A stretch of DNA of 64,000 bases, from the NCBI GenBank assembly GCA_965223855.1, contig CBDCXM010000009.1, forward strand, positions 1,664,001 through 1,728,000, given 5' to 3'. The notes under the pieces were generated by a model. It was not told the DNA's origin. It searched no databases and saw only the letters and a program-made list of their open reading frames with translations. This DNA is from Candidatus Multivoradales bacterium. Lineage in GTDB: Bacteria; Acidobacteriota; Thermoanaerobaculia; Multivoradales; JAHEKO01. The position numbers and the translations under genes are program-made. This document shows positions 330 through 56,216 of the stretch, piece after piece. The number at the start of each line of letters is the position of its first letter. Positions within the stretch are counted from its first letter, which is position 1.

Positions 330-347
330 AGCCGCTGAGTCTTTGAG

Positions 348-3558: not shown

Positions 3559-3590
3559 CAGGCGGCGAGGATACCTATAATCTCCCTCCC

Positions 3591-39696: not shown

Positions 39697-39802
39697 AGGG
39701 CAAGGTGACAGGCAGGACGACAACGCAGGACGACAGAGCAGGACCGCAGCGCCGCCGCAGGCAGCAGACCGATGAAGCCGGATGACGAGCAGAGCCGCCA
39801 GG

Positions 39803-40141: not shown

Positions 40142-40624
40142 CCGACACCTTCGATGCCAGGGGCACCACCTACGTTCTGGAACTCGAGATCGAGAGCGAG
40201 CCGCGAGGCGGTATGGGACGCGCTCACCTCGAAGATCGGCGACTGGTGGCCGCAGGAGTTCTTCGCCGGCGGCGAGGCCGGGAGCCGCAGCTTCGCCCTC
40301 GACGCGACGCCCGGCGGGCATATGACGGAGCGCTGGGACGGGGGCGGCGGCCTCCTGTGGGGTACGGTCGTGACCGTGAGGCCCGGCCGCCAGCTGCAGC
40401 TGACGGCAGTCTCTTTTCCCGAGTGGGGTGGGCCGGCGACGACGCTCCTGTCCTACGACCTCGAGGACGCAGGCGAAGGGACGTCGCTGCGCTTCGCCGA
40501 GTCGACCCTCGGCCGGGTGAGCGACGACACCCAGAGCGAGAAGGACAAGGGTTGGCGCTTCCTCTACGACGGCGTGATGCGCGCCTTCGTCGAAGGCGGC
40601 GTGCCGCCGGCCTGGGAGGGCTGA
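40138..40624 (+). pseudogene. SRPBCC domain protein, frameshifted near 40195 (probably sequence error)
   Basis: ATGA-coupled start MTDTFDARGTTYVLELEIE joins ASREAVWDALTSKIGDWW if one base is removed. Confidence 0.82.
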
Positions 40625-40768
40625 TCTTTCGCGGCTGCGGTAGCTCCACTCGGCTCCCGCTCGTGGTCCGGGGGCCGGGTGCGAAGGCGCCTGCTGAATG
40701 GAGTCAGCGTGTAGGCTTGGCGCTCCGGTCGGCACTGCGGCCGCCGGGGCGACGAGGGAGGCGCGACC

Positions 40769-42046
40769 GTGGCGGAGGCCGGCAAGGAGGGTAGGCGCAA
40801 GGCGGCGATGGCGTTCATCCTCGTCACCCTCTTCCTCGACATTCTGGGCATTGGCCTCATCATCCCGGTGCTGCCGGCACTGGTGCGCGAGTTCGTCGGC
40901 GGCAACAGCTCGGACGCGGGGCTCTACTACGGCATCATCGGCGCCTCCTACGCGCTGATGCAGTTCCTCTGCGCCCCAGTCCTGGGAGCGCTCTCCGATC
41001 GCTTCGGGCGGCGGCCGATCCTGCTGGTGGCGCTCTTCGGGCTCGGCGTCGACTACCTGATTCAGGGCTTCGCTCCGTCGATCGGCTGGCTCTTCGTCGG
41101 GCGGATCTTCGCCGGCATCATGGGGGCGAGCTACACCACCGCCAACGCCTACGTCGCCGACGTCTCCACGCCGGAGAACCGTGCGCGCAACTACGGTCTG
41201 ATGGGCGTGATGTTCGGGGTCGGCTTCATCTTCGGCCCGGCCCTCGGCGGGGTGCTCGGCGGCATCCATCTGCGATTGCCGTTCTTCGTCGCCGCCGGCC
41301 TGGCGCTCGTCAACTGGCTTTACGGGTTCTTCATCCTCCCCGAGTCGCTGCCGGCGGAGAAACGCGGATCGTTCTCGTGGGGCAAGGCGAATCCGTGGGC
41401 AAGCATCCGCAACCTCGGCCGCTACCCGCTGGTCGCGGGGCTCGCGGTCGCCTTCGTCTTCATCGCCCTCGCGCAGCGGGGACTCGAGAACGTCTGGGTG
41501 CTCTACACGAGCTATCGCTACGGCTGGGGCGAGACCGCGAACGGACTCACCCTGGCGCTGGTCGGCTTGACGGTGGCGTTCGTGCAGGGGGTGCTCGTGC
41601 GCCCGTTCACGGCCAGGTTCGGCGAGCGCCGGACGGTGCTGATCGGCCTCACCGTCGGCATCCTCTCGTTCCTCGGCTACGGCTTCGCCTCCGAGGGGTG
41701 GATGCTCCTGACGGTGATCGTCATCGGCTCGATCGGCGGCGTCGCCGGCCCCTCGATCCAGTCGCTCGTCGCCGGTTCCGTGGAGCCTTCGGAGCAGGGG
41801 AAGGTGCAGGGCGCTCTGACCTCGCTCTTCAGCCTGACGGCGATCTTCGCACCGCTGATCTTCACTTCGGGGCTCTTCAGCTACTTCACGTCGCGGGCTG
41901 CGCCGATCGAACTGCCGGGCGCTCCCTTCTTCCTCGGCGCCGTGCTCTTTTTGCTCTCGCTCCTCGTGACGCGGCGGGTCTTCAGGCGCCTGCCGCCGAG
42001 GGAGGAGCGCGAAGCCAATCTCGAGGCGGCAGCGGGCGGGCGCTGA
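40769..42046 (+). CDS. MFS transporter, TCR/Tet (DHA1) family
   Basis: LDILGIGLIIPVLP, GALSDRFGRRP motif A, GFIFGPALGG motif C. Confidence 0.93.
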   Translation: MAEAGKEGRRKAAMAFILVTLFLDILGIGLIIPVLPALVREFVGGNSSDAGLYYGIIGASYALMQFLCAPVLGALSDRFGRRPILLVALFGLGVDYLIQGFAPSIGWLFVGRIFAGIMGASYTTANAYVADVSTPENRARNYGLMGVMFGVGFIFGPALGGVLGGIHLRLPFFVAAGLALVNWLYGFFILPESLPAEKRGSFSWGKANPWASIRNLGRYPLVAGLAVAFVFIALAQRGLENVWVLYTSYRYGWGETANGLTLALVGLTVAFVQGVLVRPFTARFGERRTVLIGLTVGILSFLGYGFASEGWMLLTVIVIGSIGGVAGPSIQSLVAGSVEPSEQGKVQGALTSLFSLTAIFAPLIFTSGLFSYFTSRAAPIELPGAPFFLGAVLFLLSLLVTRRVFRRLPPREEREANLEAAAGGR

Positions 42047-42074
42047 ACGGAAGGCTCGCCTAGCGCGGACCGGA

Positions 42075-42354
42075 GTTCCGGTGACAGGATACCCCCGGCG
42101 GAGTTCCGGCGGAGTTCCGGTGACAGGATACCCATCTACGTCCGCCTTGAGGGAGTTCCGGTGACAGGATACCCATCTACTTCCGCCTTAGTTTCGGTAG
42201 TTTCGGTGACAGGATACTCATCTCTGTCGTCTCAGCGGAGACCGGCGGATCATGTCTGTAGTTTCGGTGACAGGATACTCATCACTGTCGTCTCAGCGGA
42301 GACCGGCGGATCATGTCTGCCAAGCTCCGCAGATAAGTATCCTGTCACCGAAAC
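42075..42354. repeat. Cluster of 18-bp repeats (5 direct + 1 inverted), REP-like
   Basis: GTTYCGGTGACAGGATAC at 42075, 42114, 42155, 42200 and 42261, and inverted at 42337-42354, between convergent genes. Confidence 0.9.
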
Positions 42355-42362
42355 TCCGAAAC

Positions 42363-45149
42363 TCAGCCGGTGTTCCGCAGGCCCTGGGCGACGCCGTTGA
42401 GCGTCGTTCCGAGCGCCGCCTGGAGCGCTTCCTCGAGTTCGCCGTGCTGCTGCTCCCCGAGCAGCCTCACCTGCAGCAGCGACAGCGCGTCGACGTAGCC
42501 GTTGCGCAGGCCGATGCTGGTCTGGAGCACCGGCGTCTCCTCGAGCAGGTACGCGGTGTCGCGGATCCGGCGAACCGCCGCCACCGTACGCTCGAACTCG
42601 CGCTCTAGCTCGTCGAGCAGCTCGAGATCACCACCGAGCTGCGACACGTAGAGTCGCGCCACCTCGAGATCGGCCTTGGCGCAGACCATCTCGATCTTGC
42701 CGATCAGGTCGTCGAAGAACGGCCAGTTGCAGGCCATCGACCGGAGGAGCGCTTCGCCGCCGTCTTCCGCCAGCAGCCGGGTCAGCGCGGTTCCGGCGCC
42801 GAGCCAGGCGGGCAGCATGAGGCGGATCTGGGTCCAGCCGAACGACCAGGGGATGGCGCGGATGCCCGCCATCGTGCCGGCACCCTTCTCGCGGTAGGCG
42901 GGGCGCGAGCCGAAATGCACCCTGGCGAGCTCGCGCACCGGCGTGCAGTCGAGGAACATCCGGAAGAGCGCGTCTGCCTCGTGAACGTAGCCGCGGTAGA
43001 ACGGCGCCGCCTCGGCGGCGAGCTTCTCCATGGCATCGGCGAAGGCGCGCCGCGGCGCGTCGCCGACTTCGTCGCGCCAGTCGCGAAAGGTCGCCATCAG
43101 GGCGCCCGACGTCAGCACCTCGAGACTGCGCTCGGCGATCTCGGGGAGGCCGTACTTGAGCGAGATCACCTCCCCCTGCTCGGTCACCTTGAGGGTGCCG
43201 TCGACGGAGTCGGGCGGCAGCGCCCTGAGCGCCCGATAGACCGGCGAACCGCCACCGCGGCCGACGGTGCCGCCGGAGCCATGGAAGATCCGCAGACCGA
43301 CGCCGCGCTCTTTAGCGAGAACCGCCAGCGCGTCCTGCGCCTTGTAGAGCGCCCATGCGGCGGACAGGACGCCGGCGTCTTTGGCCGAGTCCGAGTAGCC
43401 GATCATCACTTCCTGGCGTTCGCCGCGTGCCTCGAGCTGCCGGCGATAGACGGGGGTGTCGAAGAGCCGCCGCATGATCCCGGGCGCCGCCAGCAGGTCG
43501 CGCTCGGTCTCGAACAGCGGCGCGACGTCGAGGCTCGACCTCGGTGAGTCGCCGGCGAGATCGACCAGGCCTGCGTGACGGGCCAGCAGCAGCACCTGCA
43601 GCACGTCGGCCGGCGCCTGCGCCATCGAGATGACGTAGGTCGAGGCCGCGGCCTCACCCGCCTCGCGCTGTACCCGGCCCAGGGCGGCAAAGGTGTCGAC
43701 GACCTCGGCTGCGTCCCCGGAGAGGGGCGCGGTGGCCTCGGGGGTCTTGCCGTCGGCGAGACGCATGGCCAGGGCGGCGTCGTCGATCGCCTCCTCCGGC
43801 GTCGTCAGCTCGCCGACCGCCAGCCGGTGCCGGGCGGCGTCGTCCCGGATGTCGAGACACAAGCCGTGGAAACCGAAGCTCCGTACCCGGCGCAGGAGCG
43901 GCCCAAGCAGGTGGCGGCGGGCGCTGTGCGCACCGGCCGAAGAGAGAGCCTCGTCCACGGTCTCGAGGTCGGAGAGGAGCTGTCGAGCGTCCGTGTAGCC
44001 GGCGTCGCCTGTGTCTTCGAGCCCGGCATCGCGAGCGGCGACAGCCTCGCGGGTCGCGCGCACACGGCCGGCGATCAGGGTGAGGGCAAGGCGCACCGGT
44101 TCGTCGGCGTCGCGGCGACGATTGGCCGCGTGGAGATCGGGGAGGAGCGCCGCGAAGCGCTCCACCAGCTCCCCGAGCGCGGGCGGCGGCGGGGCGAGCC
44201 GCGCCGAGAGACTGATCTGCCGAGTGAGGGTGTCGAGCTCGACCGCGTATCTGCCGAGGACGCAGTGCGAGGCGCGGCGGGCGGCGGCGAGGGTGCTCTC
44301 CGGCGTGACGAACGGGTTGCCGTCGCGATCGCCGGCGACCCACGAACCGACCGCGAGCGTCGGCGTGGCCGGCGGCGCCTCGCCGAGCAGTTCCTCGGCC
44401 GCTGATGCGAGCCGCCGCTCGACGACCTCGACGGCGTCGAGAAAGCGATCCTCGAGGTACCACAGGACCGTGCTGACCTCGTCCGCTACCTGAGGGCGAT
44501 CCCGCCTCACCTCGGAGGTCAGCCACAGCAGCTCGACTTCGGTCGTCAGACGCGCCTCGGCGGCGTGGCGACGGCGGGCATCGGAGCGGTCGAGCAGCGC
44601 CGCGGCGACCCGCGCCTGGAGCGCCAGCACCGTGCGCCGCGTCGACTCGGTCGGATGGGCCGTCAGCACCGGCCTGACGTCGAGACGCTCGAGCGCTGCG
44701 GCGATCTCCTCCCGGTCGAAACCGGCGTCGAGCAGCTCCCGCAACGTCCAGCGTGCCGAAGCGGGCTGGTCCGGAGTCTCCTCGCGATCCTGATAGTGAT
44801 GCCGACGCCGCACCCGGTGAGCCTGCTCGGCGGTGTTGATCAGCAGGAAGAAGAGGGTGAACGCCCGTGCGACCACCGGGACGAGGGGCGTCTCCATCGT
44901 TCGCACCTTCCCGAGGAGCTCTTCGAGGCTCGCGGCGTTCTCCTTGCCGCGCCGCCGCGCGCGACAGGCGACCCGCAGCGTTTCGACCGCCTCGAATGCG
45001 TCGTCGCCCTCCAGCCGGCGGACGACGTCGCCCAGCGCCGCCGCCAGGAACCGGACGTCGTCGTGGAGCGGGCGATCGACCTCGCGGAAGCTGTCCGGAG
45101 GGGGGAGGAGCGCTCCGGCTCCCCCCTCAGGCCCGGAGAGCCCGGTCAC
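42363..45149 (-). CDS. ppc: Phosphoenolpyruvate carboxylase
   Basis: VLTAHPTE, GDRDGNP, PLFET, QEVMIGYSDSAKDAG, GRGG, TEQGE, RAIPW, RNTG C-terminus. Confidence 0.97.
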   Translation of the reverse strand: MTGLSGPEGGAGALLPPPDSFREVDRPLHDDVRFLAAALGDVVRRLEGDDAFEAVETLRVACRARRRGKENAASLEELLGKVRTMETPLVPVVARAFTLFFLLINTAEQAHRVRRRHHYQDREETPDQPASARWTLRELLDAGFDREEIAAALERLDVRPVLTAHPTESTRRTVLALQARVAAALLDRSDARRRHAAEARLTTEVELLWLTSEVRRDRPQVADEVSTVLWYLEDRFLDAVEVVERRLASAAEELLGEAPPATPTLAVGSWVAGDRDGNPFVTPESTLAAARRASHCVLGRYAVELDTLTRQISLSARLAPPPPALGELVERFAALLPDLHAANRRRDADEPVRLALTLIAGRVRATREAVAARDAGLEDTGDAGYTDARQLLSDLETVDEALSSAGAHSARRHLLGPLLRRVRSFGFHGLCLDIRDDAARHRLAVGELTTPEEAIDDAALAMRLADGKTPEATAPLSGDAAEVVDTFAALGRVQREAGEAAASTYVISMAQAPADVLQVLLLARHAGLVDLAGDSPRSSLDVAPLFETERDLLAAPGIMRRLFDTPVYRRQLEARGERQEVMIGYSDSAKDAGVLSAAWALYKAQDALAVLAKERGVGLRIFHGSGGTVGRGGGSPVYRALRALPPDSVDGTLKVTEQGEVISLKYGLPEIAERSLEVLTSGALMATFRDWRDEVGDAPRRAFADAMEKLAAEAAPFYRGYVHEADALFRMFLDCTPVRELARVHFGSRPAYREKGAGTMAGIRAIPWSFGWTQIRLMLPAWLGAGTALTRLLAEDGGEALLRSMACNWPFFDDLIGKIEMVCAKADLEVARLYVSQLGGDLELLDELEREFERTVAAVRRIRDTAYLLEETPVLQTSIGLRNGYVDALSLLQVRLLGEQQHGELEEALQAALGTTLNGVAQGLRNTG

Positions 45150-46116
45150 GGGGCGAGGATCCGGCGCAGCGCCGCCATGCCGAGGTTGCCACCGCACAGG
45201 ACGACGCCGACTTTCCGGCCCTCGAACTCTCGCTCGCGCTGGAGGAGCGCCGCGACGGCGACGGCGGCGGACCCCTCGATCATCATCGAATGGCGCTGCA
45301 GGAAGTCGGCGAGCGTCGCCCGGATCTCGCCTTCTCGTCGACCGTGTAGCGGCGATCGATCAGCTCCCGGCACAGCGGGAAGGTGATCGAGCCCTCCTCG
45401 ACGCCGCCGGCCGTGCCGTCGGAGAGGGTCTCGCTCGAGGGCAGGTCGAGGATCTCCCCGGCGTGGAGCGATTCGATCATCACCGCGGAGGCGGCCGGCG
45501 ACGCCGCCACCACTTCGATCCCGGGACGGCGACTCTTGAGGATCGCGGCGGCGCCGGAGAGCAGTCCACCGCCACCGAGGGCGACGAAGACGGCATCGAG
45601 CCCCGACACTTGCTCCTCCAGCTCGAGGCCGACGGTGCCCTGGCCGGCGATCACGGAGGGGTCGTTGTACGGGGAGATGTAGATCCGGCCCGATTCCTCG
45701 CCGAAGGCACGGGCGGCTCGCTCGGCGACCACCGCGTCGTCGCCGTGGGCTCGAACCTCGACGCCTGCCGCCTCGAGCCTCGCGACTTTGTCCTCGTTGG
45801 CGTTGACCGGCACGTAGACGATCGCCGGCGCGTCGACCACACCCGCGGCATGGGCGACGGCGAGGCCGTGATTGCCCGTTGAAGCGGCGACAAAACCGGC
45901 TGCGCGCTCCTCCGGCGCGGCTTCGAGCACGCGATGCAGGGCGCCGCGCACCTTGAAGGAGCCGGTGACCTGGAAGTTCTCGAGCTTGAGCCAGACGTCG
46001 GCACCGGTCGTCTCACTCAGCCACGGTGAGCGCTGAACCGGTGTGCGGCGCGCGTAGCGGGCGATCCTCTGGTGGGCCAGAGGGACGGCCGCGGCGACGG
46101 CATCGGCGTCGATCAT
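45146..46116 (-). pseudogene. Threonine/serine dehydratase, frameshifted near 45333 (probably sequence error)
   Basis: KLENFQVTGSFKVRGA, ASTGNHG, GGGGL; the C-terminal IEGSAAVA and LCGGN motifs are in another frame (45146..45373). Confidence 0.85.
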
Positions 46117-46553
46117 GCCGGTTCCACCGTGGCACTGCCGGAGTCGAGAGGAGTCGCGTCGGCACCGAAGAGGCGCTTCGTCCGGCGACGGGTGAGCAGC
46201 CAGAGCACGCATCCTCCGACGAGGGTGCCGAGGGGGAAGATCACCAGCAGCCAGCGGTTGGTGACGACGCAGTAGCGGTGACGCCGCAACTCGACGAGGT
46301 AGCGCCCCGTGCGCCACAACCGGACGGTCAGCCAGCCGAAGAAGAGGGCGAGCGGAACGCCCACGAGCGCCGTGATGCAGCTGGCGATCTGTGCGGAGAC
46401 GTCGAGCGGCTCGCCCGGCAGGGTCAGCGCGAGCACCGGGACGAGGCTGATCGCCGCCGCCATCGCCGCCATCGCGGCGAACCCGGCATAGGTCAGCCGC
46501 ACCGACCACGCCAGCGGGCCGAAGGCGGACGCCTCTCTCTGTGTTTCGGGCAT
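46113..46553 (-). CDS. Hypothetical membrane protein
   Basis: Three to four TM segments, FPLGTLVG motif; stop overlaps the next ATG (ATGA). Confidence 0.7.
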   Translation of the reverse strand: MPETQREASAFGPLAWSVRLTYAGFAAMAAMAAAISLVPVLALTLPGEPLDVSAQIASCITALVGVPLALFFGWLTVRLWRTGRYLVELRRHRYCVVTNRWLLVIFPLGTLVGGCVLWLLTRRRTKRLFGADATPLDSGSATVEPA

Positions 46554-46626
46554 CGATGCAGGTCTGACTTCCGGTGATTGCCTGCCTGGAGGATAGCAAG
46601 GAGCCCCCCTGCTACAGTGCGCCGCC

Positions 46627-47814
46627 ATGCACGGCTCGCCCGGGTCGAACGACGGCGTGATCGACAGCTCGACCGACGGCCAGGTGCTCGCCCGGGCCTG
46701 GCAGCAGTGGTGCCGCGGGCCGTGGTGGCTGCACGTCGTCGCCGTCGCCTCCCTGGCCGCTCTGGCGGCGCTGCGCAGCTGGCCTGTCGTCGCGAACCTC
46801 TCCGAGCCGCTGGGAGACGAGGTCTGTTACCTGCGCGCCTTCGAGAGCGTGCTCGCCGGCGAGTCGCCGTTCGAGCAGCCGTGCTACGTGTACCCGTCCG
46901 TGGTCGCCCTGACGGGCGGCCTCGGCTTCGAACTCCTCGGCAGGGATGCCACGGTGGCGCTGATGCGCGCTCTCAACCACGTCGGCCTCGGATTCGCCGC
47001 GTGGATGGCGGTCGGCTGGCTGCCGGCCTCGTGGATTCGCCGCGCCGCCGGCGCCGCCGCCTTCGTGGCTCTCGCACCTCAGGCGGTCTACTCGGTGCGC
47101 TTCGGCAACCTGTCGATGCTGGCGGTCGGCCTGATCCTGCTGGCGCTGGCCTGTGGGTCACGGCGGCCGCTCACCGGAGGGGGGCTGCTCGGTGCGAGCA
47201 TCGCCGTCAAGCCGCTGGCACCGATGGTGGCGTTGGGGTGGCTCCTGGCGGGCCCGACCCGAGCGTTGCGCCTCGCCGGGGGCGTCGCGCTCGGAGCGGC
47301 GGCGCTGCTGGTGCTGGCGTTCCCCCATCTCGACGACCTGCTGGCGCTCCATCGCACCGACAAGGTGGTGCGCACGGTGACCTTCCATCGCTTCCCGCCG
47401 CTGCTCGGCCTCGAGACGAGTGCGCTGTGGATCTCGTTGCCGCTCGCGCTCGGGTTCCTCTGGTGGTTGGTCAGAAGCGAGCCGGGACCGGGACAGCGAC
47501 TGGCGCTGCTGACCGTCGCCTGCCTGGCGGTGACCCCGGTGGTGTGGAGTCACACCCTGGTGCTGGCGTTGCCGCTCGAAGTGATGGTCGGCACCGTCGC
47601 GTGGCGTCGCTGGTCGCGACGCAGGGCTGCCGTCGCCGGCGCCTGGATCGAGCCGGCGTTCGTGGCCGTGGCCGTGGTGGCGATCCAGTTCGCCGCCGGA
47701 GCCGGAGGAGTCGACGATCGGGCTGTGGCGCTGCAACTCGTGGCAGGGGCGGTCCCGGGCTTGGCGCCGATCTTCCTCGTCGCCTACCTGTTGCGCGCGA
47801 CGGATCGGTTCTGA
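46627..47814 (+). CDS. GT-C fold membrane glycosyltransferase (family 87/DUF2029-like)
   Basis: D..CY..A...G.SP...YVYP loop, FGNLS, IAVKP, PVVWSH; multiple TM segments. Confidence 0.75.
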   Translation: MHGSPGSNDGVIDSSTDGQVLARAWQQWCRGPWWLHVVAVASLAALAALRSWPVVANLSEPLGDEVCYLRAFESVLAGESPFEQPCYVYPSVVALTGGLGFELLGRDATVALMRALNHVGLGFAAWMAVGWLPASWIRRAAGAAAFVALAPQAVYSVRFGNLSMLAVGLILLALACGSRRPLTGGGLLGASIAVKPLAPMVALGWLLAGPTRALRLAGGVALGAAALLVLAFPHLDDLLALHRTDKVVRTVTFHRFPPLLGLETSALWISLPLALGFLWWLVRSEPGPGQRLALLTVACLAVTPVVWSHTLVLALPLEVMVGTVAWRRWSRRRAAVAGAWIEPAFVAVAVVAIQFAAGAGGVDDRAVALQLVAGAVPGLAPIFLVAYLLRATDRF

Positions 47815-47929
47815 GGGTCGGGTTTCGGGGTCCGGAACGGGCTCGGCGCGGGTCCGGAATGCGGCCAGAGCCCTATGCTAAGGTCCACCGGATCGAGTCG
47901 TGCCAATCGAGGGGCGAGGAGGAGGTTTC

Positions 47930-48775
47930 ATGGCGAAGAAGAAGACGTTCCGGATCAAGGATCTGATGGTCACCGTGCTGCCGAAGCACGTCAGGGTCGC
48001 CCAGTGGCACTGTCTCCACGCGACGGTCTGCCGCCTCCCGAGTCGCGACGCGGACTTCGACGACTACGACGCCCAGGACTGTGGCCCGCCGGGCACCGCG
48101 ATCACCAGCCCCGGGGGTCACTGCCGGGAGGGGGTGAACACCCTCTTCCCATGTGATCCGGGCGAGGCAACGGTGACGGTCTGGTGCAACGACATTACCG
48201 ACTGCGACGGCGCCAACCTCTCCTACGACGTGGACTGCAAGGAGGGCGAGACTTCGATCGATCCCTGCGACGCGAGAGTCGCGCCGACCAATTGCCAGGG
48301 CGTGGTCGCCTCCGACGATGCCTGTGACCAGGGCCAGGGCAGTGACTGTTTCTGGGGAGTCGCGTCGGACTGTGAGGGCGATGGCGGCAGCGAGTGCCCG
48401 GCGCTGGCGGGTTCCGAGTGCGACGACGAGCCCGGTGCCGACGGTTCCCAGTGCCCCGCGCTCGAGGGGTCGCAGTGCGACGACGGCGGAGAGGGTGCGG
48501 CCTCCGGGTGCACCCAGCTCGACGGCTCGGCCGGCGAGATCTGCGGCATCACCGAGCCGTCGGCCTGTGGCGGCGAGAGCGCGATCGGCCTCAACTTTTC
48601 GCGTGTGAACGGCCTCGACGCACTGAAACGCGAACTACGTCAGGCGCTCAAGCAGGTCGAGTCGTTCGAGAAGGCGAAGTATCTCGAGGTGGCGGGACGC
48701 ACGCCGCTCGACGAGGAGGAGCGCCAGCGCCTCGCCCGCAGGGTCACGGAGAACTTCACCGGCGACGATCGGTGA
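47930..48775 (+). CDS. Putative giant lanthipeptide-type RiPP precursor (281 aa, 20 Cys)
   Basis: Strong SD AGGAGGAGG; basic N-terminus MAKKKTFRIKDLMVTVLP; acidic Cys/Ser/Thr-periodic core (C28-S217); Cys-free helical tail; directly upstream of lyase-like and kinase-LanC genes. Confidence 0.8.
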   Translation: MAKKKTFRIKDLMVTVLPKHVRVAQWHCLHATVCRLPSRDADFDDYDAQDCGPPGTAITSPGGHCREGVNTLFPCDPGEATVTVWCNDITDCDGANLSYDVDCKEGETSIDPCDARVAPTNCQGVVASDDACDQGQGSDCFWGVASDCEGDGGSECPALAGSECDDEPGADGSQCPALEGSQCDDGGEGAASGCTQLDGSAGEICGITEPSACGGESAIGLNFSRVNGLDALKRELRQALKQVESFEKAKYLEVAGRTPLDEEERQRLARRVTENFTGDDR

Positions 48776-48810
48776 GGGCGCCGTCAGGAGCCTGAGCCGG
48801 CGATCCTCGG

Positions 48811-49995
48811 GTGGCCGGCACGCTGACTCAGCTGCGTGAGTTGGCCGGGGTCGGTCTGCGGGCCGGCCGTGGCTACACACTGCGTTCCCTGGAGGAGATC
48901 AGCTCCGAGGAGCGTGAGGCGCTCGGTGCCGCCGCCGACGATCCGGCGGCGGTGGCGTTGTTGCTTCCCTCCGAGGGGAGCGGGCTGACGGTGAAACTGC
49001 TCGACTCGAGGACAGCGGAACTGTTCCGCTCGCTCGAGTCGTCGGTCTCGCGGAGTGAGCTCGCCGAGGGCCCGCAGGCGATCCAGGTCGCCCGGCTGAT
49101 CGCAGACGGCGTACTGGAGATCGAAACCTCCGACGGGTTCGTCGGTGGGCCGGCGTCGCTCCCCTTTCTCCTGGATCCGGTTCCGGATCCCGACGCCATG
49201 TCGGGGCGGGCGGCCCGCCTTGCCGTCGCGGCGGTCCGCTACGGTGCGAGTCTGGGGAAACTGCCCGCGCCCCTGCTGGCGATGCGGCTCTATCACTTCC
49301 ATCGTCTTCCCGAGTCGCGCGGATGGAGGCGGCGCCTGCCCGACGACGAGGCGGTGGATGCCTATCTCGGGATCAGCGAGGGAGAGACCGGACGACTGCT
49401 CGAGAGCACATGGATACCGATCGCCCGTGACGAGCCGAACCCCTACTGGCGGATCTGGCGGCATCGCAATCCACCGCCGGTGAGGCGACGCAGAAGGGCT
49501 ACCTGGAAGCTGTACGTGAGTCCGCTGCTCACCGACCTCCCCTCCCTTCTGCCGACAGTGGTTCGCGTCCTCGGCGAGCTTCAGGTGCCGAACTTCAAGA
49601 TCGGGCGCGGCCTCGGCGGGCTGCTGCGACCCGACAAGATCGTCTCCTACTACTGGTCGAAGGAGCATGCCGAGCGCACCCTCCGGCGCCTGGCCGCCGA
49701 GTTCGAGGGAGTCGCGGCCCACGGAGTGCCCTTCGCGGCGGTTCCGTCGGGAAACGGGTTGATCTCTCTCGGCGTCGATCCGCCGCGCGAAGAACATGTC
49801 GCCCCATGGCTCGAAGGGGCGAGCTACCGGCTGTGGGTCTGTCGCTTCCTCGCCGCGGCGCTGCGTCCGTGCGCGGCGCGGGGGATGCCGGTCGACGATG
49901 CCGCCCGCTTCGCTCTCTCGCGACTGCACCTCGAGGGTGTCGATGTGGAAAGCTGGACGCCCGACCCTGAGCGACTGGACTTCCTCGATGACTGA
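48811..49995 (+). CDS. Stand-alone phospho-Ser/Thr lyase-like protein (HopA1/OspF-type) with N-terminal RRE-like domain
   Basis: TWKLYVSP, FKIG and RPDKIVSY resemble lanthipeptide lyase motifs (WKLHVS / FK / K.I..Y); overlaps the kinase-LanC gene by 8 nt. Start uncertain. Confidence 0.7.
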   Translation: MAGTLTQLRELAGVGLRAGRGYTLRSLEEISSEEREALGAAADDPAAVALLLPSEGSGLTVKLLDSRTAELFRSLESSVSRSELAEGPQAIQVARLIADGVLEIETSDGFVGGPASLPFLLDPVPDPDAMSGRAARLAVAAVRYGASLGKLPAPLLAMRLYHFHRLPESRGWRRRLPDDEAVDAYLGISEGETGRLLESTWIPIARDEPNPYWRIWRHRNPPPVRRRRRATWKLYVSPLLTDLPSLLPTVVRVLGELQVPNFKIGRGLGGLLRPDKIVSYYWSKEHAERTLRRLAAEFEGVAAHGVPFAAVPSGNGLISLGVDPPREEHVAPWLEGASYRLWVCRFLAAALRPCAARGMPVDDAARFALSRLHLEGVDVESWTPDPERLDFLDD

Positions 49996-52342
49996 AGCGC
50001 TCGATCTGACCGCCGCGTTCGTTCTGCCGCGCCACGCACATCTGACCCCGATCGAAGAGCTTCCGGACGACCAGCGCGAGCAGGTCGGCGGCGAGCCTGG
50101 CGAGTCGGCCCTGACCCTCGCCTTCGGGCGGGCGGGCTCGAAGGTCGTGGACGGACCGACCGCAGAGCTGCTGACCCTGTTTCGAGAGCCGAGGACGATC
50201 GTCGAAGCGGTGATCGAGTTCGCGTCGGCCGAAGGTCTCGATCCCGAGGAGACCCTCGAGGCGGCCTACCCGGTGCTGTCGCGGCTTCTGGCGGCAGGCT
50301 ATCTGGTTCCGGCGGACTCGCCGGCCGCCGATCCGCCGCAACCGCGTTTCTCCCAGGGGGACCGTGTCGGGTCGTGGGAGGTCCGACGATGCATCCGGAT
50401 GATGCTCGATACGGAGATCTATCTCGCGCGCGGCGAAGAGGGTCGGGCAGCGATCAAGGTCGCGAGGGAGGCCGACCGATCTCACCTCGAGAGACGGTTC
50501 GACCGCGAGCGGCGGATCTACGAACTCCTCGATGGACTCGAAGTGGTGCCGAGGTTCCTGGGTAGCGGCGAGGTCGAAGGCAGGCCGTACCTCGTTCTGG
50601 AGTGGTGCGCCGGCCACCCCTCCAACTCGCCTCACGTCCGGTGGGGAGCGACTCGCCAGGCGCATCTCGAGTTCGCGGCTCGGACGCTCGAGGCCTATCG
50701 GCGCCTTCACGAACGCGGCGTGCTGCATGGTGACGTCCACGCCGAGAACCTGATGATCGCGTCCGACGGCGAGGTCCGGCTGATCGACTTCGGTGCCGCG
50801 AAGGTGCTGGACGCCTCCGACGAGCTCGGGCGGGCTCCGAGAATGGGAGTCGCCTACTACTACGAACCGGAGTACGCGGCCGCACTCGCCGCCGGTCGAC
50901 GCGGCCCGCCGGTCACCCTCGAAAGCGAGCAATATCGCATCGCGGCCGTTCTCTACAGCCTCCTGACGGACGCCCACTACCTGGACTTCAGGCTCGAACA
51001 GAGCGAGATGCTCGAGGCGATTCAGACAGACCCGCCGCTGCCGTTCACCCATCACGGTGTAGCGGGTCAGGAGGCTGTCGAGCGTGTCCTGGCGAGAGCG
51101 CTCGAGAAGAGCCCGGAACGGCGGTTCCCCTCCACTTCCGACTTCTGCGAGGCGTTCGCCGAAGCGCTGGACGAAACCCCTGCCGCTCCGGGCCTTTCGG
51201 CCGGACTCCTCGATCAGGCGGAGGGCGTCGTCGCCGAGCTGCTGGAGAACGCGGCCCCGGACGGGGTCTGGGTGCGGAAGGGGCTCGCCGCCGCTCCCCG
51301 CGCCTCGATCAACACGGGAGCTGCGGGCGTCGCGGTCGCGCTCGCCCGGATCGCCGAGATCCGCGATGATCCGGTGGCGCTGGCGACGGCCGACGTCTGG
51401 GTGGCGCGAGCGTTGAGCGATCTGGGCGACCACGAGGCGTTCTTCGGGCCCGACGGCGAGCTGCGCGAAGACATCGTCGAGGAGGTCTCGCTGTTCCACT
51501 ACGAGCCCGGGCTTCATGTCGCCGACGCAATCGTTGCGCAGCTGCTCGGAGATCGGCAGCGAGCCTCGGTGGCCGCTCGTCGCTTCATCCGCTCCTGCTC
51601 GCGCGAGTGGGAGAACCCCGATCTGACGCTCGGTCGGACGGGTGCCCTCATCGGATCCGCCATTCTCGTCGACAGACTCGGCGCCGATGAGTCCCTCCTC
51701 TCCTTTGGCGCCGAAGTCGAGTCGAGCGTCTGGGACTCGCTTCGGCACAAGTCGCCGATCGCCGGGCCCGAAAGCTCGTTCAACCTCGGCCTGGCTCACG
51801 GCTGGGCGGGGGTTCTCTTCGCCTCGATGCAGTGGAGTCGCGTCTCCGGGCTGCCGCTTCGCGACGAAGTGGAAGAGCGCCTCGACCAGCTCGCCGCACT
51901 GGCACAACCTCACGGCCGTGGAGTGCGCTGGCCGTGGTACCTCAAGGGGGAGAACCGAGAGCCTGTCTACATGCCGGGCTGGTGCAGCGGTGCGACCGGC
52001 CACGCGTTGCTGTGGGCGGAGGCGGCGCGGTCGTTCGACCGCGACGCCTATCTCGGACTGGCGAGCGGGTCGGCCTGGTCGGCGTGGAGAACTCCGTTCG
52101 GCTCCGATCACCTGTGCTGCGGTGCTGCGGGTGGCGCCTTCGCGATGCTGCGGCTTCATGGAACGACCCTCGAGCCGGATTGGAAGGTCCGGGCGCAGCG
52201 TCTCTTCCAGAAGTCCCTCGTACCTCCGGCGGAAGAGGCGAACTCGCCCGCCAGCCTCTATCGGGGGCGAACGGGAATCGCCCTGCTTGCCGCCGAACTC
52301 GAGGGGGACGCAGCGGCGCGGATGCCGATGCTCGAAGTCTGA
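49988..52342 (+). CDS. Ser/Thr kinase-LanC cyclase fusion (lanthionine synthetase) with N-terminal RRE-like domain
   Basis: Kinase motifs AAIKV, LHGDVHAEN, IDFG, YYEPE; LanC motifs GAAG, GLAHGWAG, WCSG, HLCCG, LYRG..G. No lyase motif seen in the ~125-aa N-terminus. Confidence 0.9.
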   Translation: MTEALDLTAAFVLPRHAHLTPIEELPDDQREQVGGEPGESALTLAFGRAGSKVVDGPTAELLTLFREPRTIVEAVIEFASAEGLDPEETLEAAYPVLSRLLAAGYLVPADSPAADPPQPRFSQGDRVGSWEVRRCIRMMLDTEIYLARGEEGRAAIKVAREADRSHLERRFDRERRIYELLDGLEVVPRFLGSGEVEGRPYLVLEWCAGHPSNSPHVRWGATRQAHLEFAARTLEAYRRLHERGVLHGDVHAENLMIASDGEVRLIDFGAAKVLDASDELGRAPRMGVAYYYEPEYAAALAAGRRGPPVTLESEQYRIAAVLYSLLTDAHYLDFRLEQSEMLEAIQTDPPLPFTHHGVAGQEAVERVLARALEKSPERRFPSTSDFCEAFAEALDETPAAPGLSAGLLDQAEGVVAELLENAAPDGVWVRKGLAAAPRASINTGAAGVAVALARIAEIRDDPVALATADVWVARALSDLGDHEAFFGPDGELREDIVEEVSLFHYEPGLHVADAIVAQLLGDRQRASVAARRFIRSCSREWENPDLTLGRTGALIGSAILVDRLGADESLLSFGAEVESSVWDSLRHKSPIAGPESSFNLGLAHGWAGVLFASMQWSRVSGLPLRDEVEERLDQLAALAQPHGRGVRWPWYLKGENREPVYMPGWCSGATGHALLWAEAARSFDRDAYLGLASGSAWSAWRTPFGSDHLCCGAAGGAFAMLRLHGTTLEPDWKVRAQRLFQKSLVPPAEEANSPASLYRGRTGIALLAAELEGDAAARMPMLEV

Positions 52343-52365
52343 CCGGTCGCGGCGTCCGGTGGCGG

Positions 52366-54735
52366 TCAGGCCCGCTCGGGTACCCAGGCCAGCCCCACGA
52401 GGTGCACTTCGACGTCCGCACGTCGGGGCCGCAGCTCTTCGGTCGTCAGCTCCTGGTGCATCGGGTCGAGGCTCTCGCGCAGGGCGTCGATCTCGCGTTG
52501 CGCCTCGGCGTCGAGCTCCTGGATCTCCGCCTGAATCGCTTCGATGTCCTCTTCGGCGCGATCGACGTCCTGCGAGTCACGCCAGGAGCGGGTGGCGCTG
52601 CGCATCGCGGTACCGGCGTTGCGGCGCACGCTGCGGCCGAGCACGGCACCGAGCAAGGTGGTGCCGATGTTGACGACGGTGTCGAGCTTCACCTGCCGGG
52701 CCTGCTGCTCTTCCTTCTCGCGGCGTTGCTCGGCTTTCCTGAGGCGCTCTTCGAGCTTCTCGATCTGGCCGGCATACTTGTCGCGCAGAGCGTCGAGCCT
52801 GGCGTCGCGCTCCTCGCGGGTGGCGTGCTGCAGTCGAACGCGGAAGTCGCGCTCGCTCTCGCCCGGCTCGGCCACCAGCCCGAACGCTTCGCTCTCCATC
52901 AGCTCGAGCTTGCGGTTGCGGTAGAGCCACTCTGAGAAGTCCTTCGTCCACGCGCTCCACGACTTCGACTGCGCCGCTTCGGACGGTACCGAGGCGAACT
53001 GGGCATCGGCGACCGGCACCTCCTCGAGACGCGAGGCGGGGACGGCGCTCATCTCGACCCGTTCCCAGTCGACCGGTACCGTGCCGTCGGTCAGCGGCGC
53101 GAGCACGGTGAGCTCCTCGGAGGTGTCGATGTCGTGCTTGCGATCGACGAAGTGCACCGTCGCCGCTCCGACGAGCCGGGGTTCGTAGCGCACCGCCGCG
53201 CCAACGGGAAGATCGCGGGCGGGCAGGAAGTACTGCTCGATGTCGGGATCGAGCACCGGTCTAGCGGAGGCGGCCTTCACCGGCGTGGCGGCTGGAGCTT
53301 CGTCGCGCTCACCGCCGGCGGGCCGCCGCCCGTCCATCAACCTTCGGATCTGATCGCGGGTCATCGGCCCGCGCAGGTAGGAGAGTACCCAGCGGGTCTC
53401 GAACACCACCGGGCCGTCGTCATGAACGTTGTGGAGCAGGAACTTGCGCTTGCCGAGACCGGCGAGGGTCTCCTCCATCTCGCCGCGATCGAAGCGCCCG
53501 GCGGCACCGGCGGAGGCTCCCTCGAGACCGTCGAGCACGCGGTTCTTGTCGCGAGCCGTCTGCAGGCGGCCGATGAACCACGAGCCGGTGTTCGAGAGCC
53601 CCTTGTAGTCGAGGTCGACCGGGTTCTGGGTCGCCAGCACGACGCCGACGCCGTGCGCCCTTGCCTGTTTGAGGAGCGTCAGCAGCGGGCGCTTCGAGGG
53701 TGGATTGGCGACCGGCGGCATGTAGCCGAAGATCTCGTCCATGTAGACGAGGGCGCGCAGGCTGCTGGTGCCCGGCTGCGACCGGGTCCAACCGAGGACC
53801 TGGTTGAGCAGGAGCGAGACGAAGAACATCCGCTCCGAGTCGTCGAGGTGAGCGATCGAGAAGATCGCCACTCGCGGTTTGCCGGTGTCGGTGTAGAGGA
53901 GGCTCTGGACGTCGAGCGACTCCCCCTCCATCCAGGCTGAGAAGCCGGGAGCGGCGAGCAGGTTGTTGATCGTCATCGCCAGCTTGAACCGCTCCGAGGC
54001 AGGGTAGAAGGCGTCGAGATCGATCACACCCACCTTGTCGATCGGCGGATCCTGGAGGCTCTGGATGACCGCCGGCAGATCGAGATCGCGACCCTCGCGC
54101 CATTCGTGGTCGAGGATCGTCGACAGCAGGATGTGCTCGCGGCTCTGGAGGGCGTCCGCTTCGATGCCTACGAAGCCCAGGAGGCTCGAGACCGTCGTGC
54201 TGATGCGGTCGCCGAAGAGCTCGGCGTCTTCGATCACCTCACGCGGTGGGGCGCGGAAGGAGTCGAGGATCGACACCGGGATTCCGGCCGACGAACCGGG
54301 AGTGTAGATCGCGAAATCGGCGGCCTCGCGCAGTCGCCGGATGCGATCACCGTCCTGTCCCCATGAAGCGAGCCCCTTGCGCCACAGCTCGGCCTGGCCG
54401 GCCGCATACTCGGCTGGCGTCAACCCGTCCTTGCGGGCGTCGTCGGCGTTGATCCACGGCTCGAAGTCCTCCGGAGCGAGGTCCGGGAAGGTCAGGAGCA
54501 GGTTGCCGAGATCGCCCTTCGGGTCGATGACGATCGCCGGGACGCCGTCGATCGCCGCCTCCTCGAGCAGACCGATGCACAGCCCGGTCTTGCCGCTGCC
54601 GGTCATGCCGACGCATACCGCGTGCGTCGTCAGGTCCTTCGAGTCGTAGAGCAGCGGCACCCCGGCCGACTCGCCCGACCCGAGGTCGTGCGGCCGGCCG
54701 AGGAAGAACGCCCCCAGCTTTTCGTAGTCCTTCAA
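52366..54735 (-). CDS. HerA/FtsK-like P-loop ATPase (DUF87/DUF853-type) with C-terminal coiled coil
   Basis: THAVCVGMTGSGKT, IDPKGD, YMDE, LATQNPVD. Confidence 0.88.
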   Translation of the reverse strand: MKDYEKLGAFFLGRPHDLGSGESAGVPLLYDSKDLTTHAVCVGMTGSGKTGLCIGLLEEAAIDGVPAIVIDPKGDLGNLLLTFPDLAPEDFEPWINADDARKDGLTPAEYAAGQAELWRKGLASWGQDGDRIRRLREAADFAIYTPGSSAGIPVSILDSFRAPPREVIEDAELFGDRISTTVSSLLGFVGIEADALQSREHILLSTILDHEWREGRDLDLPAVIQSLQDPPIDKVGVIDLDAFYPASERFKLAMTINNLLAAPGFSAWMEGESLDVQSLLYTDTGKPRVAIFSIAHLDDSERMFFVSLLLNQVLGWTRSQPGTSSLRALVYMDEIFGYMPPVANPPSKRPLLTLLKQARAHGVGVVLATQNPVDLDYKGLSNTGSWFIGRLQTARDKNRVLDGLEGASAGAAGRFDRGEMEETLAGLGKRKFLLHNVHDDGPVVFETRWVLSYLRGPMTRDQIRRLMDGRRPAGGERDEAPAATPVKAASARPVLDPDIEQYFLPARDLPVGAAVRYEPRLVGAATVHFVDRKHDIDTSEELTVLAPLTDGTVPVDWERVEMSAVPASRLEEVPVADAQFASVPSEAAQSKSWSAWTKDFSEWLYRNRKLELMESEAFGLVAEPGESERDFRVRLQHATREERDARLDALRDKYAGQIEKLEERLRKAEQRREKEEQQARQVKLDTVVNIGTTLLGAVLGRSVRRNAGTAMRSATRSWRDSQDVDRAEEDIEAIQAEIQELDAEAQREIDALRESLDPMHQELTTEELRPRRADVEVHLVGLAWVPERA

Positions 54736-54826: not shown

Positions 54827-55030
54827 TCAGTCCTTGAGGATGAAGGTGACCTTCATCACCACGCGGTACTCGGTGATGTTCTCGCCGTCGCAGACGATGT
54901 TCTGCTCCTTGACCCAGGCGCCCTGGATTCGATCGAGCGTCTGCGAAGCGCGGGCGATACCGGTGCGAACGGCATCTTCGAAGCTGGTGGGGGAGCTGGA
55001 GCTGATTTCGGTGACCTTGGCTACGGACAT
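54827..55030 (-). CDS. Dodecin family protein
   Basis: MSVAKVTEISSSSPTSFEDAV...GAWVKEQ...EYRV.MKVTF; AGGAG RBS. Confidence 0.92.
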   Translation of the reverse strand: MSVAKVTEISSSSPTSFEDAVRTGIARASQTLDRIQGAWVKEQNIVCDGENITEYRVVMKVTFILKD

Positions 55031-55173
55031 GGCGTCTCCTTGCAACAGTGAATCGGAAGGGAAGTCTTCGACAAAGAGCGAGAAATCTACCACGGCCCTC
55101 CGACGACTCCGTGGCGGAAATCGACGGGCTCGGCTGGGAATAGCGGGCGGCATCGGCCGTATGCGGCTGTAGG

Positions 55174-55779
55174 ATGACCGTTTCCACGCTCATGGTCGAA
55201 ACCGAGGTTCACGACGGCGAACTGGTGCGCGACGCTCGCGCCGGGGACCGCGAGGCGCAGAACGAGCTGGTGCGGCGGTACCGCAACCCGGCGTTCCGCT
55301 TCGCGCTGCAGCTCACCGGCAATCGCGAGGACGCCCACGACGTCGCTCAGGAGGCGATGGTGCGCTTCGTCGAGACCCTCGACCGCTTCGACGACGAGCG
55401 CCCGGTCCAGCCGTGGCTGTTCCGGATCGTGCGCAACAAGGCGTTCGACCTCGGCAGGCGCCAGAAGGTGCGCCGGGCGGAGTCGCTCGACGACCTTCTC
55501 GAGCGTGGCATGCCGGCGCCGTCGCAGCCGACCGTCCACCCGGTCGATCGTCTCGAGCTCTTCGAGCTGAGGCGGCGGGTCTGGGAGGCGCTCGGCCGGT
55601 TGACCGAAGGGCAGCGGGAGATCCTCGTGTTGAGGGAGTATCAGGATCTTTCCTACGGGGAGATCGCGGAAGTTCTGGGAGTGCCGACCGGGACGGTGAT
55701 GTCGCGCCTGCATCGCGCGCGGACCGCCCTGCGCAAACAGCTCACGGCCGCTCCCGACAGTTCGAGGGCAGCACAATGA
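55174..55779 (+). CDS. ECF sigma-70 factor
   Basis: DAHDVAQE, WLFRIVRN, LSYGEIAEVLGVPTGTVMSRLHRAR. Confidence 0.94.
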   Translation: MTVSTLMVETEVHDGELVRDARAGDREAQNELVRRYRNPAFRFALQLTGNREDAHDVAQEAMVRFVETLDRFDDERPVQPWLFRIVRNKAFDLGRRQKVRRAESLDDLLERGMPAPSQPTVHPVDRLELFELRRRVWEALGRLTEGQREILVLREYQDLSYGEIAEVLGVPTGTVMSRLHRARTALRKQLTAAPDSSRAAQ

Positions 55780-56216
55780 CGAAGCATGCAAGCGGGTTCG
55801 ACGAAGTACTCCTCTCCGGCTATCTGGACGGGGAGCTGACACAGGGCGAAGAGCAGCGGGTACGTCTGCGACTGGAGGAGGACGCCGAGGCGCGTTCGCT
55901 CCTCGGAGAGCTCGAACAGATCAGGGCGGCGGCTCGATCGACCGAGCTGCCGGCGCCGAGCGACGCGCAGTGGGACGAGGCGCCGCGCGACGCGGCGAGC
56001 CGCTGGATGCGGCGCACCGGCTGGACGGCAGTCCTCCTGATCGTCGCGGTGCTCGCCGGCCTCGCCGGCTGGGCGTGGTGGACGGCGCCGGAGAGTCCGG
56101 GGATGAAGCTGCTGGCGGCCGGTATCGTTGCCGGACCGCTGCTGCTGCTCGGTTCGGTGTGGCGGGATCGAGTGCGGGTCGGCCGTACCGATCGCTACAG
56201 GAGGGTCAAGAAGTGA
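55776..56216 (+). CDS. Membrane anti-sigma factor
   Basis: ATGA-coupled; LLSGYLDGEL anti-sigma domain without the HxxxCxxC ligands; two TM segments. Confidence 0.85.
   Translation: MTKHASGFDEVLLSGYLDGELTQGEEQRVRLRLEEDAEARSLLGELEQIRAAARSTELPAPSDAQWDEAPRDAASRWMRRTGWTAVLLIVAVLAGLAGWAWWTAPESPGMKLLAAGIVAGPLLLLGSVWRDRVRVGRTDRYRRVKK

Follow-up and report, generated by a model that had tools for sequence, protein, structure and literature searches.

A Cys-rich precursor gene beside a predicted split lanthionine-type synthetase in a Multivoradales genome, with related loci in about ten phyla

The 64,000-nt stretch of DNA analysed here (contig CBDCXM010000009.1 of a Candidatus Multivoradales bacterium, positions 1,664,001 to 1,728,000; henceforth the window) carries on its forward strand, at 47930-48775, an open reading frame (ORF) whose 281-residue product is made up of a leader, a core with 20 Cys residues and a tail. 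We take this ORF to be a real gene. Its product is probably acted on as substrate by a split synthetase of lanthionine type, the parts of which come from the two genes that follow, one for a lyase-fold protein (48811-49995) and one for a fusion of a Ser/Thr kinase with a LanC-like cyclase (49988-52342). The three genes lie on one strand, separated by a 35-nt gap and then joined by an 8-nt overlap (ATGACTGA), and since the following gene (52366-54735) is on the opposite strand, the unit consists of these three. As the start of the precursor we prefer the ATG at 47930 over the GTG at 47900, which is the start given by the ORF list, because a Shine-Dalgarno-like box, AGGAGGAGG (47917-47925, + strand, read from the sequence), ends 4 nt before the ATG.

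The core (48011-48580, 570 nt in frame with the ORF) encodes Cys28 to Ser217 and holds its Cys at residues 28, 34, 51, 65, 75, 86, 92, 103, 113, 122, 132, 140, 148, 156, 164, 175, 183, 194, 205 and 213, that is, at spacings of 6-17. A sequence-only reading of this DNA had seen here 20 consecutive Cys-x(3-8)-Ser/Thr units, opening with Cys and closing with Ser, with Thr dominant in the first half, Ser in the second, and a surplus of Asp, Glu and Gly. This description holds in all its parts: the 20 strings that it quoted are present in frame and there are exactly 20 Cys, the residue chosen in each unit is Thr in seven of the first nine units and Ser in all of units 10-20, and the 191 aa of the core include 28 G, 26 D, 20 C, 20 A, 15 S, 13 E and 11 T, with a net charge of about -34. 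Every one of the 20 stretches from one Cys to the next contains Ser/Thr, and 15 contain exactly one; where there are two or three (CGPPGTAITS, CDPGEATVT, CKEGETS, CTQLDGS and CGITEPS), the earlier reading had picked one. Such a pattern is not expected by chance, because when the whole core was shuffled 100,000 times Ser/Thr never came to stand in all 20 units, and when it was shuffled 200,000 times with the Cys positions held fixed this happened only 22 times. Nor are the Cys units recent DNA repeats, since Tandem Repeats Finder detected only a 19-nt GACTACGAC repeat. The 12 residues upstream of the first Cys are free of Ser/Thr, whereas after the last Cys a Ser stands at +4.

A search of a 5.8-billion-protein set with the precursor matched only the precursor itself, ESM Atlas gave no usable match, and no Pfam or NCBIfam family matches it. 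As no homologue could be detected by sequence, it was gene position that revealed the family to which the precursor belongs. Related loci were sought with the lyase: the single 394-aa sequence found nothing, but an alignment as query worked, and a pattern search over one genome per species (185,579 species) gave 224 relatives, from which 80 loci were kept. In 79 of these, spread over about ten phyla, a kinase-LanC gene lies downstream of the lyase gene on the same strand, within about 250 nt in 77 loci and 0.8-1.2 kb away in L040 and L056; in the remaining locus (L028) the sequence ends about 420 nt after the lyase gene. Directly upstream of the lyase gene, 61 of the 80 loci have an ORF with a leader-like motif and at least two Cys. 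Hidden Markov models (HMMs) of leader and tail were built from these 61 homologous precursors, with the window's ORF left out, and among all ORFs of the window only 47930-48775 matches both, the leader model at residues 7-19 (20.9 bits, E 2.8e-6) and the tail model at residues 227-249 (17.8 bits, E 7e-5). An HMM search was positive in 68 of the 80 loci, a figure that is partly circular, since the models came from the same loci; of the 12 others, three (L061, L063, L085) offer under 450 nt of sequence upstream and five (L028, L043, L049, L051, L055) show, by eye, variant Cys/Pro-rich ORFs. Further precursors were found in relatives of the window's genome (L012, L013, L014 and L010).

What the family shares is a leader of the form M-x-F-K-x-K-D-L-M-V-x-V-L-P (alignment A2), a hypervariable core rich in Cys and Ser/Thr, and a helical tail of roughly 20-75 residues, the first helix of which reads L-x-x-L-K-x-Q-L-x-x-A-L-x-x-V-E. 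In the window the leader recognition motif covers residues 5-21 (KTFRIKDLMVTVLPKHV, 47942-47992), as supported by the N-terminal HMM, alignment A2 (consensus over the motif MxFKxKDLMIxVxP) and a complex model, and the tail covers residues 218-281 (48581-48772), its conserved amphipathic helix being residues 227-249 (48608-48676), where the tail HMM matches. Precursors of the family are up to 282 aa long, and not one attains a Pfam or NCBIfam cutoff, the tails giving only sub-threshold matches to coiled-coil-type Pfam models. Five loci (L020, L021, L022, L040 and L050) have a second, tandem precursor with the same leader and tail but a different core, and tandem precursors with differing cores are also a feature of clusters for peptides that are made by the ribosome and modified after translation (RiPPs) with several precursors. 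A conserved leader and a variable Cys/Ser/Thr core next to a synthetase are what is found in lanthipeptide precursors (LanA), and the term precursor core, used in the sequence-only reading, is borne out by the family leader and tail of this ORF and by its place directly upstream of the genes for a phosphoserine/phosphothreonine (pSer/pThr) lyase-fold protein and a kinase-LanC fusion.

Cores of the family have 2 to 32 Cys (median 9), the window with its 20 being eighth of 62. The window's core is also the longest and the most acidic, the next most acidic (L095) having a net charge of -24. The metal-binding or structural role that the sequence-only reading saw suggested by a polyanionic product is speculative. 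Acidity is not a trait of the family, most of whose cores are near a net charge of 0; the polyanionic character is peculiar to the window's member and a few others. Some cores consist of near-exact peptide repeats: in L095 (2908-3369, a Gemmatimonadota metagenome-assembled genome, MAG), the closest analogue of the window's acidic core, there are five copies of C-E-S-G-T-A-C-P-E-G-T-E-P-P, and in three Acidobacteriaceae MAGs (L031, L044, L045) the cores have five or six copies of C-Y-A-S-G-G-G.

In the 61 homologous precursors the number of Ser/Thr per core closely follows that of Cys (r 0.93, slope 0.96), with Cys and Ser/Thr counts such as 32:34, 30:30, 24:24 and 12:12. Scaling of about 1:1 is what one would expect if each Cys were destined for one dehydrated residue. 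The stricter rule of at least one Ser/Thr per unit holds in 536 of 653 inter-Cys segments (82%) and is complete in 18 of the 61 homologues.

The first of the two enzymes, the 394-aa product of 48811-49995 (+ strand), is predicted to have an RRE-like (RiPP recognition element-like) N-terminal domain (about residues 13-117) followed by a pSer/pThr-lyase fold of the HopA1/LanY type (residues 130-387). Its AlphaFold model, from an alignment of 43 sequences, has a predicted local distance difference test score (pLDDT) of 91, and Foldseek matched the model to LxmY (9dk1_B), the lyase of the class V dehydratase LxmKY, with an E-value of 9e-7, as well as to HopA1 (4rsx), to the class III lyase domains of SalKC, ThurKC, CuvL and PneKC, and to SpvC/OspF. 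VIA, an aligner independent of Foldseek, gave, over residues about 124-390, Z scores of 14.9 for HopA1, 14.7 for LxmY, 14.3 for CuvL, 12.6 for ThurKC, 11.4 for SalKC and 9.0 for SpvC, with the next unrelated entries near Z 7. The family is large (1,271 clusters at 50% identity with E<=1e-3, 553 of them with E<=1e-30), and where a name is given among the 120 relatives listed it is "hypothetical protein", with no precomputed Pfam domain on record for any of them. Five residues, K233, Y235, K263, R273 and Y280, are invariant in 43/43 homologues. The spacings of K233/K263/R273/Y280 (+30, +10, +7) resemble those of R187/K219/R229/Y236 in CaoY (+32, +10, +7), a correspondence drawn from spacing and not from a residue-level structural alignment. 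According to a mutagenesis study, R187 and K219 of CaoY are needed for phosphate elimination, the R229Q variant dehydrates inefficiently, and LanY proteins lack the catalytic His of OspF and LanL (PMC9486802).

The second enzyme (49988-52342, + strand, 784 aa) is a fusion of an RRE-like N-terminal domain (residues 10-77), a Ser/Thr kinase (about 149-380; Pfam Pkinase, 5.4e-18) and a LanC-like cyclase (about 440-782; Pfam LANC_like, 8.4e-26). Its best NCBIfam match is the LanL model NF038150 (E 3.6e-41, 141.4 bits against a cutoff of 650 bits), which aligns only over model positions 184-800 of 851, so that the lyase domain of LanL is absent from the fusion. A search for longer relatives found no fused lyase-kinase-LanC forms, which is weak evidence. 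Across 71/71 proteins the kinase residues K157, E174, H247-x-D249, N254 and D267-x-G269 are invariant, as are His604 (AHGW), W665-C666-x-G668 and C710-C711-G712 of the cyclase. The latter two motifs form a predicted zinc site of the ProcM-like "CCG" type, which, according to PMC8524650, marks substrate-tolerant ProcM-like enzymes with three zinc-binding cysteines, among them SyncM, an enzyme that makes rings in both directions.

Both enzymes seem to begin with the same kind of module: the kinase-LanC protein shares homology over its first ~80 residues with the N-terminal domain of the lyase (hhalign 81%, E 1.2e-5, 68 columns), and the two therefore carry paralogous N-terminal modules. That this module is an RRE is suggested by structure comparisons of the lyase. 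In the search with the whole model, residues about 13-110 align with the RRE parts of TigE (Z 6.7), MibB (194-287, Z 6.5) and TbtB (Z 5.6). When the domain was modelled alone (pLDDT 82), RRE-bearing RiPP proteins made up at least 15 of the 50 VIA matches listed, including TbiB1 and a lasso-peptide B1 protein with leader, MibB, TbtB, PqqD, the PbtF RRE, MadB, LynD, ThcOx, NisB, McbB, TglHI, MccB, CteB, SuiB and GodF, with many RRE proteins at Z 3-5.9 and a maximum Z of 5.9. A profile of the kinase-LanC N-terminal domain found nothing meaningful among PDB sequences. Pfam DUF7782 matches residues 1-128 of that protein (49988-50371, + strand) below threshold (E 0.0066, 17.1 against 27 bits), and may itself describe this RRE-like module.

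A complex prediction for the lyase protein (alignment A1) with residues 1-45 of the precursor (alignment A2) supports binding of the leader to the N-terminal domain of the lyase. The predicted complex scored 0.78, whereas the best of three controls reached 0.01, with at least 64% agreement of contacts between runs and a partner pLDDT of at least 48. Of 80 solved complexes 58 attain the pass mark, as do 2 of 110 mismatched pairs; these figures apply only roughly here, since the alignments were our own. In the model, leader residues 5-21 touch helices of the lyase around 30-41, 67-71 and 88-99 as well as a strand at 58-65, and the closest contacts are strand-like, between lyase 60-64 and leader 9-15.

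A split lanthionine synthetase, in our view the probable answer, is the most economical way to read these findings together. Leader residues 5-21 would dock as an added beta-strand on the RRE-like winged-helix domain of the lyase, as the complex model has it, and both enzymes would be held on the substrate by their RRE-like domains. The Ser/Thr-kinase domain, by its family membership, would phosphorylate Ser/Thr of the core, the HopA1/LanY-type lyase, judging from its fold and conserved residues, would eliminate the phosphate to leave dehydroalanine or dehydrobutyrine, and the LanC domain with its CCG zinc site would then add the 20 Cys thiols to these alkenes. The result would be up to 20 mostly non-overlapping (methyl)lanthionine rings.

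As to which Ser/Thr each Cys would be joined to, statistics were taken over 59 non-redundant homologues, two of the 61 having been dropped as their first 50 residues duplicated those of another. Counting from Cys, Ser/Thr is found at +4 with a frequency of 0.49, against 0.22 in shuffles (z 20), at +1 with 0.33 (z 6) and at +3 with 0.31 (z 8), and is depleted at +2 (0.04, z -13); on the upstream side it reaches 0.26 at -3 (z 4.7) and 0.236, against 0.225, at -2 (z 0.8), all of these z-scores overstating independence, since the homologues are related and carry internal repeats. The ends of the arrays are likewise asymmetric. Over the six residues that precede the first Cys the density of Ser/Thr is 0.056, and over the six that follow the last Cys it is 0.205, from where it falls to 0.10 and then to 0.08 further into the tail, and Ser/Thr occurs within four residues after the last Cys in 49 of the 59 precursors and within four residues before the first in 12. 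Across the family, then, arrays open with Cys and close with Ser/Thr. C-x-x-x-S/T, in many cases C-x-x-P-S/T, is the prevailing unit, and the window's unit is wider, C-x5-S. We lean towards the view that each Cys pairs with the Ser/Thr that follows it; such pairing would give mostly seven-residue rings in the window and five-residue rings (C-x3-S/T) in most relatives.

Several observations weigh against the synthetase or against this ring direction. Dehydration, thioethers and ring pattern are all inferred. At the level of sequence, the lyase protein has no match to any Pfam or NCBIfam model, including Pfam HopA1 (E<=0.01), LanL and LanKC, and the profile of its family found nothing meaningful among PDB sequences; by spacing, it has Tyr where OspF and LanL carry their catalytic His. 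The RRE assignment of its N-terminal domain, when taken alone, rests on Z scores below 6, and Foldseek with this domain returned no match at E<=0.001, its top entry being the heterocyclase TruD at E 1.4; the passing complex model may partly echo solved RRE-leader complexes. In the homologues, 117 of 653 inter-Cys segments have no Ser/Thr, so that some Cys may stay free or pair across segments. Finally, the entropies of Cys-Ser/Thr distances are equal family-wide (2.24 forward, 2.20 backward), and in the window's own core direction is ambiguous, with Ser/Thr at +6 from Cys (C-x5-S) in 12/20 units and at -2 from the next Cys (S-x-C) in 11/20, and with an entropy in single-Ser/Thr segments of 1.29 for the backward S-x-C distance and 1.61 for the forward one.

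This backward regularity, which the sequence-only reading had not stressed although S-x-C is almost as regular in the window's core, is the basis for an alternative that we regard as possible, if on the whole unlikely: the same thioether chemistry would operate in the usual direction, with each dehydrated Ser/Thr attacked by the next Cys downstream. A dehydro residue on the N-terminal side of Cys is the commoner direction in known lanthipeptides, which speaks for this scheme, as does the fact that in the window Ser/Thr stands exactly two residues before Cys in 11 of 20 cases and in 10 of 14 single-Ser/Thr segments, more regularly than in the forward direction; the period-3 C-T-x cores of L088, L094 and L073 fit T-x-C equally well. 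One would then expect the second half of the core to carry very small S/T-x-Cys rings (i to i+2) and the remainder rings of i to i+3 through i+5, with the first Cys free or bridged elsewhere and the last Ser left as dehydroalanine. Family-wide, however, it is +4 and not -2 that is enriched, arrays start with Cys and seldom have Ser/Thr just before it, and in the window the nearest Ser/Thr upstream of the first Cys lies in the leader strand modelled on the RRE. Non-overlapping rings with Cys on the N-terminal side, as the earlier reading had proposed, are thus favoured by the +4 enrichment and the array ends, whereas the slightly greater regularity of S-x-C in the window is not in their favour. 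Among the homologues, a comparison of which that reading had proposed as a check, the array ends are kept and the cores vary, and the strict Cys-to-Ser/Thr register fails in a minority of segments and in most homologues.

One may also consider that the Cys are mostly outside thioethers, the acidic Cys-rich core binding metals or forming disulfides, while kinase, lyase and LanC modify few sites or add an external thiol, as do eukaryotic LanCL proteins. We hold this to be improbable. The very acidic (-34), Cys-rich composition does recall certain proteins that bind metals, the neighbourhood has no conserved protease or exporter, and 18% of the homologues' inter-Cys segments are without Ser/Thr; yet the nearly 1:1 scaling and the positional coupling of Cys and Ser/Thr are not expected of metal sites, the gene order precursor-lyase-kinase/LanC is conserved, and most cores of the family are not acidic. 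Last, that the precursor is a chance open frame with a pattern born of composition, a notion fed by the long overlapping ORFs that high-GC DNA yields here in every frame and by the lack of homologues among 5.8 billion proteins, we consider refuted by the strong Shine-Dalgarno box 4 nt upstream of the ATG, the match of this ORF alone in the window to leader and tail HMMs built without it, its gene position, kept in at least 61 of 80 related loci, the significant shuffle tests and the passing leader-lyase complex model.

Returning to the split lanthionine synthetase, the system resembles the kinase-LanC of class IV combined with the separate LanY lyase of class V. Class IV LanL enzymes (VenL, SgbL) also have a Ser/Thr kinase followed in one polypeptide by a LanC of zinc type, as is predicted here, and their dehydration logic, phosphorylation and then elimination, would be the same; the Pkinase match and the invariant residues predict an active kinase here too. 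Unlike LanL, whose OspF-like lyase is fused N-terminally, the window has a separate protein of predicted HopA1/LanY lyase fold, and the 141.4 bits are far from the 650-bit equivalog cutoff. According to PMC8341899, the zinc ligands of SgbL (class IV) are Cys-Cys-His and the leader is bound by the kinase domain; in the window, H604, C666 and C710 are followed by Cys711 (of CCG) for the predicted third ligand, and both enzymes carry an RRE-like N-terminal domain. The conserved C-terminal tail of the precursors is another difference from class IV. Class III LanKC enzymes lack zinc ligands, whereas the zinc-ligand Cys are invariant in the window's family, and the class III model NF038151 gives the kinase-LanC protein 98.8 bits against a cutoff of 575. 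Nor is the labionin motif of class III (S-x2-S-x2-5-C) borne out in the window or the family; neither shows a surplus of Ser/Thr at -4 or -7 from Cys, and a labionin reading was rejected.

With class V (LxmKY, CaoKY) the system would share a stand-alone putative pSer/pThr lyase, of predicted HopA1 fold, working with a kinase; it also has no conserved catalytic His, as in CaoY (PMC9486802). It differs in that the kinase is of Pkinase type and fused to LanC, not an aminoglycoside-phosphotransferase-like LanK, that the cyclase is LanC-like, not LanX, and that the lyase has an extra RRE-like domain, has no Pfam HopA1 match at E<=0.01 and, by spacing, has Lys233 at the position of Arg187 of CaoY. 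The CCG zinc motif and hypervariable cores behind a conserved leader recall ProcM/SyncM and the prochlorosins, where dehydration is by a LanM domain and not by kinase and lyase; prochlorosin cores are also short, with few rings, compared with up to 20-32 Cys and a C-terminal tail in the window's family. The class VI LanKC_b enzymes of streptococci, as described in the consulted text of a review (PMC12328550), are similar in being LanKC-like with a reduced lyase part; in that text, they make miniature lanthipeptides, their lyase is truncated rather than absent, and no separate RRE-lyase is mentioned. At defining points the module departs from classes III, IV and V, and it differs from class VI as the review presents it. 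Six lanthipeptide classes are still counted in the abstract of a 2026 paper (PMC13509491). No Pfam or NCBIfam model covers this split layout, and in the open-access literature we found no account of a kinase-LanC plus separate RRE-lyase system and none of a "class VII lanthipeptide", though an account elsewhere is possible.

Regarding the product, we would say with low confidence that, instead of being a small antibiotic for secretion, it may remain a large polyanionic protein stapled by thioethers; it may stay protein-sized because no protease or exporter is linked to it, the helical tail of roughly 65 aa is conserved and precursors are up to 282 aa long. A bolder proposal, which we offer as speculative and rather doubtful, is that the system is a seventh architectural class (RRE-LanY-type lyase plus RRE-kinase-LanC(CCG)), found in Acidobacteriota and about ten other phyla, the products of which are not small secreted peptides but whole proteins of 60-280 residues, with at most 20-32 successive reverse-direction thioether rings and the conserved coiled-coil tail kept, that act in or on the cell, for instance as protease-proof polyanionic scaffolds or metal buffers. 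If the chemistry proposed for the split synthetase is right, there would be a further widespread lanthionine pathway, invisible to annotation, in which elements known from class IV and class V are joined to a cyclase site of ProcM type, and its substrates would be far larger and more densely ringed than classical lanthipeptides (20 Cys here, up to 32) and would carry recognition or functional elements at both ends. It would also offer a natural and apparently very substrate-tolerant enzyme pair for placing many thioether staples in long polypeptides, and a system in which the control of ring direction could be tested directly.

The module occurs chiefly in lineages from soil and sediment that are uncultured and in which RiPP chemistry has hardly been explored. 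Within the Acidobacteriota loci were found in Thermoanaerobaculia, Terriglobia, Blastocatellia, Holophagales and Vicinamibacteria, and beyond them in Gemmatimonadota, Planctomycetota, Chloroflexota, Eremiobacterota, Armatimonadota, Nitrospiraceae, Cyanobacteria (Trichodesmium, Okeania), Bacillus, Rhodocyclales and Actinomycetota. The cyanobacterial loci (L042, L056) are in MAGs of filamentous species, and the two from Bacillus (L030 and L096; Bacillus pfraonensis and Bacillus sp. Xin1) are in cultivable isolates, which would make these practical experimental sources. The phosphoenolpyruvate carboxylase encoded in the window has its closest relatives, at 67-68% identity, in MAGs labelled Thermoanaerobaculia and Planctomycetota, from which Acidobacteriota is the probable lineage. 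Closer to the window, whose genome is 4.5 Mb in 9 contigs and an estimated 92% complete, the module is present in 9 of 61 related genomes searched, counting the window's own (G000), and in one of four other genomes of its genus. A scan of 47600-52600 gave no promoter-like and no terminator-like sites; three sequencing runs match, all from one study, with no RNA run among those listed.

Clustering of neighbouring genes within about 4 kb in the 80 loci revealed no further gene family in more than six loci, and no conserved protease or transporter; a cluster of antisense ORFs in 30 loci was rejected as an artefact of picking the longest ORF in GC-rich DNA. Seven loci (L028, L039, L043, L082, L086, L087 and L091, at positions of about 50-3600) have upstream a very large ORF of 850-1170 aa, with one or two Ser/Thr-kinase-like regions first and a repeated "SPDG" beta-propeller-like sequence last. 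In six of these the precursor-like ORF is short, Pro-rich and Cys-poor (C-P-D-D-T, C-P-P-P-S), and in L039 none was seen at the locus.

Of the genes flanking the module in the window, the ORF at 52366-54735 (- strand, 789 aa) is convergent with it; its N-terminal part gives a Walker-type HerA/DUF87-like match (8e-7), its C-terminal region is long and charged, and other loci do not keep it beside the module. The ORF at 46627-47814 (+ strand), directly upstream of the precursor, encodes a 395-aa multi-pass membrane protein with a sub-threshold match to the GT87 glycosyltransferases (E 0.0014, 18.8 against 25 bits), which is not conserved in related loci either. Further out, 39782-46599 and 54827-56533 hold ordinary neighbours, namely an ArsR-type regulator, an AHSA1/SRPBCC protein, a major facilitator superfamily (MFS) transporter, a phosphoenolpyruvate (PEP) carboxylase (831 bits), a pyridoxal phosphate (PLP)-dependent enzyme, a dodecin, a YbjQ-like protein and an extracytoplasmic function (ECF) sigma factor with a zf-HC2 anti-sigma candidate.

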